DNA of 63,448 bases, filler included, from Chrysochromulina tobinii (taxonomy: Eukaryota): the NCBI GenBank assembly GCA_001275005.1. It is 9 parts of 9 records of this genome, joined end to end, with 100 filler letters (N's around TTAATTAATTAA, not from the genome) between each part and the next. Parts side by side here need not be neighbours in the genome. Positions count along the whole stretch, not along the records: positions 17,080 to 25,240 come from JWZX01000727.1; positions 25,341 to 30,726 come from JWZX01000730.1; 7 more parts are not named here. One strand, written 5' to 3'. Position 1 is the first letter of the stretch; every line of letters starts with the position of its first letter. The position numbers were made by a program, and so were the translations under genes. Below, one piece after another: positions 22,352 through 46,977 of this stretch. The notes beneath the pieces were generated by a model. That model was not told the DNA's origin. It was given only the letters and a program-made list of their open reading frames with translations, and made no database searches.

Positions 22352-24304
22352 TTATGGGCCATGGGCGCCGCTTGGCTGACCATGCTGGGCGGCGCTCAGA
22401 TCGAAAGACATCTTGAAGAACAGGTAGGCGACATAGTCGCGGTCGCCCTTGGCCGTGAACTCAATCGCGGGGTCGTCCATCATCTTCTGGTACTCTTCCA
22501 CGTTTTCTGGCCAAGGCCGAGCGTTGAGGACGTCCTGCACGTCCTGATCGCCCAAGTTGGCGATGATTTTCGCCTTGAGCGCACACGAGAATTCGGCGGC
22601 GCACCAGCCGCGATTTTCGTAGGGCACGGCGTTGATCCACCCCCACGGGTAAAACCGCTCGCATTTGCGCTTCTTCACCTCGCTGAACTTGAGAACTGGC
22701 TCGCTTTGTGATCCCAACACTGCTGGGAAGTCCTGCCAGCGTTCGATCTGAGGCAGGACGATGACTTCAACTCCACCGAAGGCGAACATGCGCGACATCT
22801 CGAAGAGCGCCGTGCGGAAGCATTTGCTCTCGCCTGGCGTCCGATCGCGCTGCGGCGGAAGGCCAAGGCCGGTTCCGAAGCGGGCATCCTGGAAGAGGCT
22901 AGCGTAGTCGAGAAAGACCGCATCGTCGTCATCCGCGTGTGCTGTTTTGAGTGCTTGTGCGAGTCGGTGGATGCGCTTGCTGCTCGGCGTGGGGTGGTTT
23001 TCACAGGCCCAGCCATGGCTCACAGCAAAGCGGCGCCGATTCTCTGGCGGCATGCCCTCATAAAAGCTGCCACGGGGCAACTCCTGGCGTCGCGGGAAGA
23101 GAAGCACCTCGTCCTGTGCCCATCGCTGGTGCTCCGACACGAAGTGTCGGATGAAGCCAACCTTGATCCAACCGATACGTGATTGGATGCAGAAAGCGCT
23201 GAAGCCTTTGTCGTCTTCTCGCACTGGCTTCATGCGCTCCAATGAGCGTTTCAGCCCCGGAATGATGATCTCCTTGAGATCACTCTCAATTTTGCTGCTG
23301 AGCTTGCCGGAACGGTGACCCTCAAGCAGTCGCTGCACCGGATTCATGAGCGCTGAAGCCGAGAAGTGCTCCTTCACTTCAGGGTCAGAGGCGTTGACAA
23401 TCCGCTGGCAAAACGCTGCCAGCATGAGCTCTGCGGTGACCCACTCGCTCTCATGTATGGCTCTGTCGCGATGCCTGTGCAGCACCACCGTACGCAGCCC
23501 CGAATACGTTACGTTCCAAAAGGTTCGACTGCTTCCTTCCTCGAAGGCCCTTGAGCGCCGCTCCTGCTCGACAGTCAGGTCGGTCCAGTTCCGCGAACCA
23601 TCGCTCCTGGTATGGCTTCCATCGCCAGCTGCTGTGTAGTGACGTTGTGGCCGCGCGCAAAACTCCATCAGGACCAGATCAGAGTCATGTGCATCTTTGA
23701 GGTGCTCGACAAGGTCCGCCAGATGATCACCTTGCGGGTCCGGGTGCTCTTTTGTCCCCCAGATGTGGATGACGTTGTAGATCTCCACGCCCGATGGTGG
23801 CGCGCCGGCGTGATAGGCGTGCCGTGGGATCCATTGCGCTGCCGGAAGAATCTTCTCCTCCTTATGAAGCGTGCGCAAGTACCCAAGAAGAATGAATTGG
23901 AGCTTCGCTTCATCTGCCCACTTGTTGAACCCTGCATCGTCCCAACGAGGGTCGGGCCCGTCAGCACCAAGCGCATCGGCTGCCGAGGCAGTCGACGGCA
24001 GCGGCGGAGGGGGCGGCTGCTCCTTTTTGGTGGCCGCCCTTGCCGCATCCACCATCCCCGCATCCGCCTCCCGACGCAGCCGCGCGTTGAGAACCAAATA
24101 GTCATTGGGTTCGCAACTAGCGACGGTGTTGGTCTTCGCGGTCATCAACTTCAAGATCACATCCATTTCGCGTTTGTCGCCGCGCCGGGCCCAGCAAAAC
24201 AACTCCAAAAGCCCCTTCGTGAATTTGGAAGTTCGCAGTCGAACCAGGAATAAGTCAACTTCTGAAACTGTCGCGCTGTTATAAACGCCAGCCTTTCCTG
24301 TCAA
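22352..24304 (-). CDS. Tandem HET-like domain protein, paralog 2; start uncertain
   Basis: Highly similar to 19747-21741 at nucleotide level over most of its length, with the same motifs. Confidence 0.7.
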   Translation of the reverse strand: MTGKAGVYNSATVSEVDLFLVRLRTSKFTKGLLELFCWARRGDKREMDVILKLMTAKTNTVASCEPNDYLVLNARLRREADAGMVDAARAATKKEQPPPPPLPSTASAADALGADGPDPRWDDAGFNKWADEAKLQFILLGYLRTLHKEEKILPAAQWIPRHAYHAGAPPSGVEIYNVIHIWGTKEHPDPQGDHLADLVEHLKDAHDSDLVLMEFCARPQRHYTAAGDGSHTRSDGSRNWTDLTVEQERRSRAFEEGSSRTFWNVTYSGLRTVVLHRHRDRAIHESEWVTAELMLAAFCQRIVNASDPEVKEHFSASALMNPVQRLLEGHRSGKLSSKIESDLKEIIIPGLKRSLERMKPVREDDKGFSAFCIQSRIGWIKVGFIRHFVSEHQRWAQDEVLLFPRRQELPRGSFYEGMPPENRRRFAVSHGWACENHPTPSSKRIHRLAQALKTAHADDDDAVFLDYASLFQDARFGTGLGLPPQRDRTPGESKCFRTALFEMSRMFAFGGVEVIVLPQIERWQDFPAVLGSQSEPVLKFSEVKKRKCERFYPWGWINAVPYENRGWCAAEFSCALKAKIIANLGDQDVQDVLNARPWPENVEEYQKMMDDPAIEFTAKGDRDYVAYLFFKMSFDLSAAQHGQPSGAHGP

Positions 24305-24349
24305 CCGTGGTGTCTCAGTCTGATCTCAGTGCCTTTCTCACGCACTAGA

Positions 24350-24428
24350 CACTGAGTTCAAAACGCAGGAGGTGGGGATAGAGTGTGTGAATCCAGAAAG
24401 AATACCTCCCCCTACCCCTTTGGGTCAA
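24350..24428 (+). mobile_element. Monomer of the ~77-bp CACTGAG...GGGTCAA unit, inserted upstream of HET paralog 2
   Basis: The homologous site upstream of paralog 1 (22008-22094) is empty, reading CTAGAGCTGCTGCGT versus CTAGA-[unit]-A-AGAGCTGCTGCGT here. Confidence 0.85.
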
Positions 24429-24592
24429 AAGAGCTGCTGCGTCTTACTACGCCGTAAGGGAGCTCACAGCACAGCCTCAGTGTTCGAGTTCTTCGGGAGC
24501 TAGGAGTGGCGGCTACTGGCCATGCGAGATACAAATCTAGGCCAAGGAGTGGCGCCACTCCCTGCATGCAAGCGCCCAGTACGGCGCTAGCC

Positions 24593-25240
24593 CTAGGAGT
24601 GGCGGCTCGCCGTACGAGGCGCCTGCGGTGTGGCCGTCCGCGGCGCGCGAAGGCGCTGCGCGGGGAGGTGCTGCACGAGTCCATCCTCATCAAAGGCGAC
24701 CACGTACAGCTGGGCACCGTCCGCGGCGCGGCTGGTCGCCCTCACCTTGGCCGCATACCACTCGCCGTTGTCGTACTGGGCAAGCACGCGCCCCCCGGGC
24801 GTCGGCACGAAAGGGCGTGGCTTTGAGCTCCGCTTGACCAGGGCGAGCTTTGAGTGGTCGACGGGCGGCGTGCTCGCCCCGGCGGGATTCTCGCGAAGGG
24901 CGCCGTCAGGCACCGCAGCGACGGAGTGACCGCTGTCAAGGGCGCGCACGCCGGATCTGGCGGCGGCGGCGGTCGTGGCGGCAGGGCAGGTGGGGGCGGC
25001 GGGTAGACGATGGCTCGAAGGTGGTCGACAGCCAAAGGAGCCCCCGAGTATCTCGGCGAGTATCTCGGCCTCACCCGCCGCCGTCTTGGTCGGGCGCGGC
25101 CGCGCCTCCGTCTCACCCACCGCTGTGAAGGCCGCTGTGAAGGGGGGCTCTGCTACAGTCTCCGCGGGCGACTCTGGCGCAGTCGCCTCCGCCCCCGCCG
25201 CCTCCTCCTCCTCCACCTCCTCGGCAGCTGCCGAGTCCAG
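24593..25240 (-). CDS. 5'-truncated ORF ending in a Tudor/Agenet-like domain
   Basis: GGRVLAQYDNGEWYAAKVRA...YVVAFDEDG aromatic-cage pattern. The ORF runs into the linker. Confidence 0.6.
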   Translation of the reverse strand: MDSAAAEEVEEEEAAGAEATAPESPAETVAEPPFTAAFTAVGETEARPRPTKTAAGEAEILAEILGGSFGCRPPSSHRLPAAPTCPAATTAAAARSGVRALDSGHSVAAVPDGALRENPAGASTPPVDHSKLALVKRSSKPRPFVPTPGGRVLAQYDNGEWYAAKVRATSRAADGAQLYVVAFDEDGLVQHLPAQRLRAPRTATPQAPRTASRHS

Positions 25241-25429
25241 NNNNNNNNNNNNNNNNNNNNNNNNNNNNNNNNNNNNNNNNNNNNTTAATTAATTAANNNN
25301 NNNNNNNNNNNNNNNNNNNNNNNNNNNNNNNNNNNNNNNNGTAAGGGCCCATCCCTATACACCTGTTTCGTGTTTGGGAATGGAATGTGCGCAAAAATCA
25401 TATCTTCTCTACACTTGAACTTAACACTG

Positions 25430-25474
25430 CACTGAGTCCGAAATCAGGCGTCGGGGTTTCTAGAAAAAATTCCT
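25430..25474 (+). repeat. Degenerate copy of the 77-bp unit, inverted relative to the array at 27086-27419
   Basis: CACTGAGTCCGAAATCAGG matches CACTGAGTTCAAAATCAGG at 17/19, followed by GGGG and TCTAGAAAAAATTCCT (cf. TCCAGAAAGAATACCCT). Confidence 0.65.
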
Positions 25475-25510
25475 GACGTGGTTCCAGCGCATCCCCACCG
25501 CGTGGTGCAG

Positions 25511-25779
25511 GGCCGAGCGGCGTGCGCACGATTGCCCCGAACTGGGGGTACGTTGAGGTTGACTACCTTGTCAAGATCAAGGTAGACTCCGAGGGCAACG
25601 TGCACTACGAGAAGTGGAAGCATCCCAGTGGCGAGCTCACGGTGCTGACGAAGCCCAAGATCTTGACGGTGACCTTCAAATGGCTACGCGTGGACGAGGT
25701 CTCCAACGGACACCAGCGGTATGTGCTCAGCATGGCGGACTACCAGCGAATGACGGACGCTGTGAAGCCGGTCGAGTAG
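25511..25779 (+). CDS. Probable last exon of an unknown gene, convergent with Rep
   Basis: 85-aa beta-rich frame without ATG, preceded by a TGCAG acceptor (25506-25510) and a GTAAG donor at 25341. Confidence 0.45.
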
Positions 25780-25916
25780 TACTCGAATCAGACGTGATCG
25801 ATTTTGAGGAGCGCGCATGGTAACGGGCTGCGCGTCAGCTGTGTGGGAGAATGGATACGTTGTGTATTACAGATGATCATCATATCAAATTATCAAACAC
25901 TGTGGAATAGATTTAA

Positions 25917-26909
25917 TCAACGGTATGTACGCTCAAAAATCTGCAGCTGCACCACTCTACGACCTACAATCTGACCGTGCGGATCACACGGCCACACATC
26001 TCGCTCATTTGTCACGACGATCTTTCGAATCCCCTTTGGGATAGACACCTTCTTGTAAAGGCAGCGGATTGACGCCGACAGTGTGTAGTCGGTGAGTTTC
26101 TCGCATTCGTGCAGGGAGAAGCCAGCCGGCGGACGCTCGCGCGGGAGCATCTTGTCGATGACGATGCCATCGTGCCAGTCGGGCCGAAAATCGAGCAGAT
26201 CGTTGCGCTCCGTCACGTGGAGCGGATTCGCAAACTGTGCCAGCGCCCATTCGGTCTTGCCGAGGTTGACACCACCCCAAATCTGCAGGGTTCCGACAGC
26301 CCCGCTCGCGTAGACCTCCGGCACCCAGAGTGGTAGAAAGCTCTCGCGCTCAAAGTTGTGCTCAAAGGGCCGCAGCCGCTTTGCGTTTTGCAGCAGCAAC
26401 ACATCGTGCAAATTGCGAACGCCCAGGCCGGCCAGCTGAGCGCCCTCGATGAGGTCCGATGCCTCACTCACTTCCGTCAAGACGTAGTCGTTCCACTCGA
26501 AGCACGGCGGCAGTTGCTGCCAAGGCCCAGCAACCGGCGCCACAAAGGTTGACTTGCCGCCGAGCTTGTGCCCTGCGTGGTACCGCGTGAACACCAGCTG
26601 CATCCACTTGATCGACTTGCGGTGCTCCGCATGAGGATGGATCGTGGTGCCCTCGCACTCGACGTCCATGAGCCGCGCTCCGTGCAAATTCGGCGCGCGC
26701 TCCCACAGCCACGCCAAGTGCGTGTGCGCGTAGGGCGCCTCGGCGTCGCTCGCCTCGTGCACAACTGATGAGCCCAGGACCGTGTTCGATTTGGTGACCG
26801 AGGACAGCTGGCGCAGGAGCAGCTCTGCTGGGATGTGCCCGACATACGTGAGATGCCACAAGCGTGCACGCCAGCGAAACGTGTCAGCGGCCGGGTCGGC
26901 CTTCGACAT
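25917..26909 (-). CDS. rep: Geminivirus/genomovirus-like rolling-circle Rep (HUH endonuclease + SF3 helicase), 330 aa
   Basis: Motif I FRWRARLWHLTY, motif II HTHLAW, GRS-like LMDVECEGTTIHPH, motif III YHAGHK, Walker A GGVNLGKTEWA, Walker B IVIDK, motif C IVVTN and Arg-finger GRR. Confidence 0.88.
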   Translation of the reverse strand: MSKADPAADTFRWRARLWHLTYVGHIPAELLLRQLSSVTKSNTVLGSSVVHEASDAEAPYAHTHLAWLWERAPNLHGARLMDVECEGTTIHPHAEHRKSIKWMQLVFTRYHAGHKLGGKSTFVAPVAGPWQQLPPCFEWNDYVLTEVSEASDLIEGAQLAGLGVRNLHDVLLLQNAKRLRPFEHNFERESFLPLWVPEVYASGAVGTLQIWGGVNLGKTEWALAQFANPLHVTERNDLLDFRPDWHDGIVIDKMLPRERPPAGFSLHECEKLTDYTLSASIRCLYKKVSIPKGIRKIVVTNERDVWPCDPHGQIVGRRVVQLQIFERTYR

Positions 26910-27085
26910 GGATTCTTTTCTTTGCGGACTTCGGAGATTCGCTGTTCTATTTTCAGAAGTATACCGGTACGATCTCAAACCCGGGGTCAACGCAAAGAGA
27001 ATCTGGCTTTCAAGACCTTCCTACTCTTACACGAATCTGGCCTCAGAAAGTGGCCCCCTCCAAAAGAAGCCTCATGATCGAAATG

Positions 27086-27419
27086 CACCACCTGATTTTG
27101 AACTCAGTGGTTGACCCAAAGGGGTAGGGGAGGGTATGGATTCACACACTATCCCCACCACCTGATTTTGAACTCAGTGGTTGACCCAAAGGGGTAGGGG
27201 AGGGTATTCATTCACACACTATCCCCACCACCTGATTTTGAACTCAGTGGTTGACCCAAAGGGGTAGGGGAGGGTATTCTTTCTGGATTCACACACTATC
27301 CCCACCACCTGATTTTGAACTCAGTGCAAAGCGCAAATAGGGGAAGGGCAAAGGGGTACATGAAAGGGGAGGTATTCTTTCTGGATTCACACACTATCTC
27401 CACCACCTGATTTTGAACT
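27086..27419 (-). repeat. Tandem array of the ~70-77-bp unit directly upstream of rep (1 partial, 3 full, 1 degenerate)
   Basis: TTGACCCAAAGGGGTAGGGGAGGGTAT..ATTCACACACTATCCCCACCACCTGATTTTGAACTCAGTG at 27111-27179, 27181-27249 and 27251-27326. Confidence 0.95.
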
Positions 27420-27450
27420 GATTGTTCGACGTCGCATGTCTGGTTGCTGA

Positions 27451-46199: not shown

Positions 46200-46359
46200 T
46201 TGTGCGGTTGTGACATGCCGTGGAGCGGGTTCATGACGTTAGGAGCTCGTGAACTTTTGAGGATGAGGGTGAGGGCAAGGGTTCTAGGACCGGACGAGAG
46301 TCAGAAGTTGCATACTACACCACAGACCACACCCGACCCCCCCCGGGCCGACGCCCGGC

Positions 46360-46514
46360 CACTGAGTTCAAAATCATGTGGTGGGGATAGTGTGTGAATC
46401 CAGAAAGAATACCCTCCCCTACCCCTTTGGGTCAACCACTGAGTTCAAAATCAGGTGGTGGGGATAGTGTGTGAATCCAGAAAGAATACCCTCCCACCTA
46501 CCCCTTTGGGTCAA
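46360..46514 (+). mobile_element. Head-to-tail dimer of the 77-bp unit
   Basis: Units at 46360-46435 and 46437-46514 are near-identical to the reverse complement of 27251-27326. Flanks are GGC and G-GGC. Confidence 0.9.
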
Positions 46515-46977
46515 GGGCCCGCCCGCACGCGGCGAGCGCGGGCCCGGCGGACATGGGCTGTCGTGTGAGTCTGAGACTGAGCGCGTGCGTGTGCTCGTGT
46601 CGTGTGAGAGCCTCGAAACAAGCGCCAAGCGGAGAAAACCCCGATTATACATTATTGCGAAGGACGAAGGTGGAAGGTGACGGAAAGAGTGGTAGAGTCG
46701 CATCTTGAGTCGCATACACCGCGACCTACACCGCACCCCACCCCACTTTTCCCCGGGCATTGTCGATTGTGGCCGTGTGAAAGAGAGCCTCGAACCGAAG
46801 CGAACCGACCAGGACGATGGAAAACAATATTACGAGACACTGTGTTTGTCACCCAAACGACACGTATGCACGTACACAACGAACATGCCGCCATCATATG
46901 ACCACGATCATCGAGAAAGCCGATTCCCCCACGGCTCACAACTCAGCGACTCACGCAGGTGTCCGAGAGGTCAACTG

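Follow-up and report, generated by a model that had tools for sequence, protein, structure and literature searches.

Genes and repeats around the Rep gene

The locus described here lies in a 63,448-nucleotide stretch of Chrysochromulina tobinii DNA (assembly GCA_001275005.1), in which GC-rich, eukaryote-like contigs are strung together with linkers of N. We refer to the whole stretch as the window. [quoted passage not shown] The unit also occurs singly and as a dimer elsewhere in the window. An initial annotation had proposed that Rep and the unit form a rolling-circle or REPIN-like system. In our analysis the unit turned out to be the end, on the Rep side, of a larger element, in which Rep very probably faces the gene of a predicted DDD transposase (Table 1).

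The element copy in the window spans 25430-27326; it is internally deleted and has inverted CACTGAG sequences at its two ends. Fourteen freshwater DNA runs contain near-identical sequence (0.83-0.86 of the sampled words). On the Rep side, the array (27086-27326, minus strand) consists of 77-, 70- and 70-bp units and a 24-bp partial copy, and begins 177 bp from the Rep start. The initial annotation had correctly placed an array upstream of Rep, with an end coordinate that covers only part of the degenerate fifth copy.

The opposite end had been overlooked, as had the transposase remnant at 25502-25779. At 25430, 17 of 19 nt are identical to the start of the unit (0.0007 expected in the window). 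Contigs start or switch flank at 25429/25430 in all three contig runs, and in lake contigs the stretch from 25502 to 27087 runs as a separate piece. From the flank switch and the separate piece it follows that 25430 is a genuine end and that the copy in the window has been deleted or has recombined. This is presumably where the full-length element has its far end. Apart from its remnant, the transposase gene was lost by an internal deletion at 25499/25502, where wild contigs run on into the gene. A second deletion, of 48 bp, stripped the predicted nick motif from the innermost Rep-side end of the window copy, and wild contigs diverge at 27087. An autonomous element extending from 25430 to 26990, with GGGTCAA at 26984-26990 as its end, was ruled out because wild contigs pass through to 27087.

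Table 1. Positions of the features in the window and in two metagenome loci
Feature	Position	Strand	Remark
Solo unit, 80 bp including the variable last base	24350..24429	+	Target duplication AGA at 24347-24349 and 24430-24432
Sister-element end starting CATTC	25341..25387	-	Aligns with the end of the second subfamily
Distal end, repeating the Rep-side end in inverted orientation; imperfect terminal inverted repeat starting CACTGAG	25430..25499	+	Sequence match
Remnant of the predicted transposase gene, last ~91 codons	25502..25779	+	98.9% identical to the C-terminus of the L001 open reading frame
CRESS-type Rep, HUH endonuclease and SF3 helicase	25917..26909	-	330 aa, uninterrupted open reading frame
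Two CCAGATTC repeats, predicted Rep-binding iterons	26999..27040	-	Putative function
Innermost Rep-side end, truncated	27086..27109	-	Compared with L001 positions 1-100
Three head-to-tail units (77, 70, 70 bp)	27110..27326	-	57 bp of transposon end and 20-bp tail
Degenerate outer (fifth) unit	27327..27424	-	Sequence
Unit dimer	46360..46515	+	Apparent GGC duplication at 46357-46359 and 46516-46518, seen in the sequence
TTAA-flanked elements with 16-19-bp inverted ends and inverted motif pairs beside Rep	L012:1424-1839; L015:1635-1740 and 1-150

The Rep protein

Rep is a CRESS-type HUH endonuclease carrying a superfamily 3 (SF3) helicase, as the initial annotation had recognized; its structural matches and its conserved motifs agree with this assignment. 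The HUH residues are H62, H64 and Y110, and the SF3 residues are K218, D252, N301 and R318. Counted over non-gap alignment rows, H62 and H64 were conserved in 85/85, Y110 in 92/92, K218 in 93/96, D252 and N301 in 87/89 and R318 in 81/85. Walker A, Walker B, motif C and the arginine finger of the helicase are near-invariant among 98 homologues. The structure model (predicted local distance difference test score 91.8) matched the Vientovirus Rep, geminivirus Rep domains and SF3 helicases. Identity to the structural neighbours was 13-27%, with viral Reps reaching the upper value, and the Atlas matches were likewise CRESS Reps.

A Pfam search gave no match for the window Rep and weak Gemini_AL1 matches in 6 of 45 homologues, and sequence searches of the PDB returned none or chance-level matches only. 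Ninety-eight of 100 homologues share 43-96% identity and lie mostly on metagenome contigs of 1-2 kb; the other two are weak Viral_Rep matches. No relatives were found in IMG/VR contigs or in plasmids, all 15 prokaryotic pattern matches were due to chance, and a weak test for a longer fused form of Rep found none. Branching in the Rep tree, including the order of the distant relatives, is mostly poorly resolved (row L009 is out of frame). The family appears to be under purifying selection: the ratio of nonsynonymous to synonymous substitution rates (dN/dS) was 0.09-0.25 in 11 of 12 pairs, the twelfth being saturated. These values are rough because most dS exceed 1.

The unit is a mobile element end

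We compared the surroundings of Rep over 27 metagenome loci. In contig L001 (5,244 of 6,279 bp read), which encodes a Rep 99% identical to that of the window, the sequence starts at the first base of the unit, is identical to it over 57 bp and continues into unique sequence, Rep and a long open reading frame (ORF) facing Rep. The 77-bp unit thus consists of the Rep-side element end (L001 positions 1-57) and a 20-bp tail. Because the unit is physically an element end, and because units of their own sit at this place in two further Rep subfamilies, the connection between Rep and unit claimed by the initial annotation goes beyond chance.

All full copies of the unit span CACTGAG to GGGTCAA, in keeping with the limits first assigned to it, which had missed both the target duplication of 3 bp and one extra base per insertion that follows GGGTCAA and varies among insertions. 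A 14-mer of the unit had nine matches with at most two mismatches, against 0.24 expected. The solo unit and the dimer were located where the initial annotation had put them, on separate linker-divided contigs apart from the array contig. The insertion of the solo unit is polymorphic and comes with a duplication of 3 bp of the target. A contig of run X8 joins 24346 to 24430 and skips 83 bp, with three letters fitting either side; this empty site corresponds to an 80-bp insert plus the AGA duplication. A second empty allele was present in runs X1 and X8, and a filled allele in X2. The empty and filled alleles confirm that the unit is mobile, and the empty site with its 3-bp duplication points to DDE-type integration.

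Tandem unit junctions occurred in all four lake runs, and many contigs diverge at unit ends. Read depth on the unit was 136- to ~970-fold that of the flanks (4/4 runs), a value that is not a copy number and serves as a hint only. The hairpins named in the initial annotation can be drawn, but are at chance level: in eight of eight folds the unit folded no better than dinucleotide shuffles (z +0.89 to -0.95).

A predicted transposase faces Rep

The long ORF of L001 is convergent with Rep and encodes more than 1,277 aa; relatives in its cluster reach 1,460 aa, and close relatives are named from Emiliania huxleyi, so that the host is probably a haptophyte. No Pfam match was found. When the predicted model was searched with VIA-align, integrases and transposases ranked at the top (best Z 8.1, root-mean-square deviation 3.4, 143 aligned; IstA 7.6, TnsB 7.5, Mos1 7.3), and the majority of 50 rows were RNase H-fold proteins. 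Atlas matches were all under 0.9. A D-D-D triad was assigned from the model to D312, D553 and D608; of the non-gap rows, 24/27, 26/27 and 29/30, respectively, retain these residues. In this model-based assignment D553 and D608 are 55 residues apart. The protein is accordingly predicted to be a DDD transposase of the integrase/RNase H fold, and it may resemble the Sola (DDD) transposases. PHD fingers occur in remote relatives (P0247, P0310 and P0300), and one relative is joined to the N-terminal part of HSP90.

No ORF other than Rep and the transposase fits between the element ends. The absence of a capsid gene, already noted in the initial annotation, is borne out, the facing ORF encoding a protein with a predicted RNase H fold and DDD triad.

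In 3/3 contig runs the end of the neighbouring sister element follows, at a distance of 257 letters, a match of 27-42 bp to the 3′ region of the transposase. There is no space for Rep between this end and the match. Over the sister-element stretch 25341-25428, lake contigs carry on at 25428 without the 25430 element.

Nick-like motif, iterons and the unit join

In geminivirus origins the nick motif lies on the strand opposite Rep, and iterons lie between the origin and the Rep start. We looked for the same layout in 13 of the loci, the counts omitting 11 loci with less than 200 bp of upstream sequence and three duplicates of L021. On the strand opposite Rep, 5/13 loci carry the motif TAWCATTR at 178-229 bp upstream of the gene (chance 0.6-3.4% each by base shuffling). 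CCAGATT, an iteron-like sequence, occurred within 260 bp upstream of Rep in 9/13 loci (0.7-2.2% each by shuffling), and its repeats are predicted to be Rep-binding iterons. At 150-230 bp upstream of Rep in L010, L012, L013 and L015, the iteron-like repeat makes up an inverted pair of 18-28 bp whose arms are 3-21 nt apart.

The motif coincides with the join inside the unit. In three of three unit types (57+20, 63+14 and 51+21 bp) the body gives way to the tail precisely at TAWCATT^R, as read on the strand opposite to Rep. Subfamilies 1 and 2 become homologous 3 bp from this join. TAWCATT matches six of the seven positions of the TATTATT preceding the nick in the canonical Rep substrate TATTATT*AC described in PMC13231165. 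From these sequence comparisons TAWCATT^R is likely to be a geminivirus-like nick site. No consistent or significant origin stem-loop was found around the motif.

Other subfamilies and distant relatives

The second subfamily (L020-L023, representing one locus) has a Rep that is 92% identical, frameshifted and truncated. Its unit of 77 bp comprises a 63-bp end and a 14-bp tail. A homologous, inward-facing far end is present in L024, so that this subfamily also has inverted ends, with first bases of its own; host flanks are present in L021-L023. The marine subfamily L003 (Rep 71% identical) has a 72-bp unit of 51 and 21 bp. The large copies begin with CAC or CAT at both ends, and the deleted copies of the window and of the second subfamily carry inverted ends.

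More distant Reps (52-55% identical) were found in L012 and L015, in repeats or circles composed of Rep and a TTAA-flanked element with inverted ends, which we take to be piggyBac-like. These elements contain two to four copies of the nick-like motif. The repeat of L012, 1,339 bp long, includes a filled and an empty TTAA site and lacks the motif outside the inserted element; L015 closes with a 1,726-bp period. In L013 and L014 the nick-like motif occurs downstream of Rep as well. The arrangements in L012-L015 therefore indicate that the Rep clade accompanies transposon-like ends of more than one type.

Several further features were recorded. The ORFs facing Rep in L002 (1313-2140) and L003 (1497-2381, minus strand) share His, Trp and Gln-x-Asp-Gly-x-Ser-Cys motifs and had no Pfam match; the motifs resemble those of a Ulp1-type cysteine protease. 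An array of ~13-33-bp repeats lies upstream of a truncated Rep fragment (L011:3438-3860). The truncated Reps of L019, L011 and L020-L024 all end at codon 269, followed by shared non-Rep sequence and then by differing flanks, which suggests a further mobile derivative. The solo unit of the window sits ~45 bp upstream of a long ORF (22352-24304, minus strand) without a Pfam match, which shares the motifs SH.W...P and D..D.. V..D..S..Q with another long ORF, L024:2747-3967 (minus strand). Short tandem arrays with periods of 10, 19 and 34 bp cluster at the start of a contig (window 56601-57232).

Comparison with known systems

Of the traits of DDE/DDD transposons with terminal inverted repeats (TIRs), the RNase H fold and the triad are present in the predicted model, and TIRs are seen on two deleted derivatives. 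Target duplications of 3 bp flank both unit insertions, one of them with an empty site, and are absent from both large deleted copies. The CMCT clade (EnSpm/CACTA, Chapaev, Transib) is described as having CA-starting ends of the type CA(C/T)T and 2-5-bp duplications (PMC12730594). [quoted passage not shown]

The nearest precedent appears to be the geminivirus-like transposon of Tuber melanosporum, in which Rep and one or more transposase ORFs are located between TIRs (Liu et al. 2011, PMC3198968). As described there, it shares with the present element a gemini-like Rep combined with a transposase, TIRs, large copies without obvious duplication and recent amplification. The Tuber element is degenerate, its ORFs being interrupted or truncated and confined to one fungal genome, whereas here both genes are intact. 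Here, moreover, the Rep family comprises 98 clusters under apparent selection, a nick-like motif and putative iterons lie inside the end, and the terminal micro-unit multimerises and produces 3-bp duplications on insertion.

As a working analogy KolobokP probably comes closest. It combines a DDD/E transposase with a His-Me finger nuclease proposed to make multimers; the related KolobokH carries RecQ (PMC9587614). In that account KolobokP has, like the present element, a second nuclease, multimers and solo terminal units that are mobile by themselves, and its multimers of terminal repeats and internal parts resemble L012 and L015. It differs in its nuclease, a His-Me finger instead of the HUH-SF3 protein found here, and in its terminal repeats, which measure 450-660 bp and have TIRs of their own; the unit here has 72-77 bp and one TIR-like end.

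Replitrons encode a Y1 HUH endonuclease related to CRESS Reps and occur in algae including haptophytes; they are described with an HUQ motif, GYxxK, short direct terminal repeats, no helicase and no second gene (PMC10288648). Duplications and fuzzy ends as in Replitron-1 are a point of likeness. In contrast to Replitrons as described, Rep has the HUH motif (HTH in 85/85 non-gap rows), YHxGxK, an SF3 helicase and a DDD partner. A Replitron was excluded by the helicase, the HTH motif II and the absence of PF21859 and PF21860 among the matches of 45 family members (E up to 1). A Helitron, which has a Y2 Rep fused to an SF1B helicase and makes no target duplication, was excluded by the single conserved Tyr, the SF3 instead of SF1B helicase within 330 aa and the 3-bp duplication.

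With CRESS-DNA viruses the element shares the HUH-SF3 Rep fold and motifs and the layout of nick motif and iterons; it differs from them in having no capsid and no significant origin hairpin, and in a Rep embedded in a transposon end. A capsid-bearing virus was excluded by the facing ORF, which encodes the predicted DDD protein. REP/REPIN-RAYT systems are palindromic hairpin repeats next to a helicase-less Y1 transposase. They were excluded by the shuffle-like folding of the unit and the helicase in Rep. The pure rolling-circle or REPIN-like system of the initial annotation is largely set aside as well, the unit being the terminus of a DDE-type transposon with its own predicted transposase.

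Proposed mechanism and alternative explanations

The gene content and order, the unit as an element end, its join at a conserved motif and its mobility with 3-bp duplications are the basis of our interpretation. We favour, with a probability of roughly 0.55, a two-enzyme transposon in which Rep makes or multiplies the terminal unit and the transposase inserts it. Rep would bind the iterons and nick at TAWCATT^R, 51-63 nt inside the terminus and on the strand opposite to the one that encodes Rep, as in a geminivirus origin. The Rep helicase and a host polymerase would then push the displaced strand outward through the terminus. The 5′ end held by Rep would be joined to a 3′ end lying 14-21 nt past the terminus, which would yield the unit of 72-77 nt; head-to-tail multimers would arise if copying went on or if the nick induced recombination. 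The transposase would cut with a 3-bp stagger and insert solo units, dimers and whole elements. The likely benefit would be more copies of the element or its ends for the cut-and-paste enzyme.

A number of observations weigh against this interpretation. The pairing of Rep with a DDD transposase is known for one family only and was seen in 1/27 loci (most contigs are short); in L002 and L003 a different ORF faces Rep. As to the transposase itself, a common arrangement can produce a VIA-align Z near 8, and Foldseek gave no match for the protein at E 0.001. The distal TIR of the full-length L001 element is presumed, its far end lying outside the stretch read. Neither large copy has a target duplication at its inferred ends (CTG versus CAA or TTC in the window; CTG versus TCA in L021/L024). 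TAWCATTR is missing from the 260 bp tested in 8/13 loci, and L001 and L021 (92% identical) are not independent. The motif has no match in the window and hence none in the unit, and Rep therefore could not re-nick the unit there. Finally, the unit has only one TIR-like end, which does not account for how a DDE enzyme would join the tail end.

We consider it unlikely, though less so than the remaining alternatives, that Rep itself is the mobiliser. In that case an HUH cassette of CRESS origin, with TAWCATT as its end, would enter the ends of different DDE transposons by insertion or recombination and spread the unit as its REPIN-like, non-autonomous partner. The Rep cassette meets five different upstream sequences at the motif, each time before a G, its partner genes differ from locus to locus, and the large copies lack duplications like the Tuber element. 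The 3-bp duplication and variable last base of the unit would be akin to Replitron-1, for which variable duplications and fuzzy right ends are described (PMC10288648). However, the ends of the unit differ from the nick motif, which the unit does not contain, and no copy of the tail turned up beyond Rep within the 5,244 bp read from L001. The duplication was 3 bp in both insertions examined, and an end of this kind also occurs in the sister element, which has no Rep.

The near-invariant catalytic motifs among the 98 homologues and the low dN/dS argue against Rep as inert cargo, that is, an endogenous CRESS Rep captured by a DDE family with a tiny non-autonomous derivative whose tandems arose by slippage or unequal crossover. 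Motif and iteron spacing kept in distant relatives and the join at the motif in all three unit types argue in the same direction. This explanation, which we regard as improbable, draws on the sister element that manages without Rep, on the frameshifted and truncated Rep of the second subfamily and on the loss of the motif from the window copy; the function of Rep is deduced from sequence and model. Still less probable is a free, capsid-less circular replicon or satellite, with Rep placed among transposon ends by occasional integration or misassembly. L015 does close on itself, L012 has repeats, and the structural neighbours of Rep are viral. Against this, IMG/VR contigs and plasmids yielded no relative, Rep is joined to the transposase gene in lake contigs of three studies, L021-L023 have host flanks, and the L012 repeat is free of the motif outside its inserted TIR element.

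Implications

HUH and DDE transposition are usually treated as separate classes. If the two-enzyme interpretation is true, the element would present an intact HUH and DDE pair in which an HUH origin inside a DDE end provides a copy-out step by a viral replicase, and thus a testable case of a virus gene absorbed into the life cycle of a transposon. More tentatively, and with somewhat less than even odds, the elements may represent a new hybrid transposon group of marine and freshwater haptophytes. A CRESS Rep-helicase and its origin would have been domesticated in DDE ends of at least two types (CA-ended, and TTAA-flanked and piggyBac-like); Rep would roll out copies of the end or element and the transposase would paste them, and the ~80-bp one-ended unit would be among the smallest mobile DNA elements. 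We found no description of this family in the literature searched, which included few subscription journals; related elements may be listed in Repbase and in the supplements of the Tuber and Replitron papers.

The system would open to experiment both the single, degenerate case reported from Tuber and the multimer model proposed for KolobokP. The handles would be a pair of short enzymes, a substrate in the form of a defined oligonucleotide, and insertions that are polymorphic among wild populations in lakes. For the algae themselves, an abundant, recently active insertion of ~80 bp would be a source of variation and of markers.

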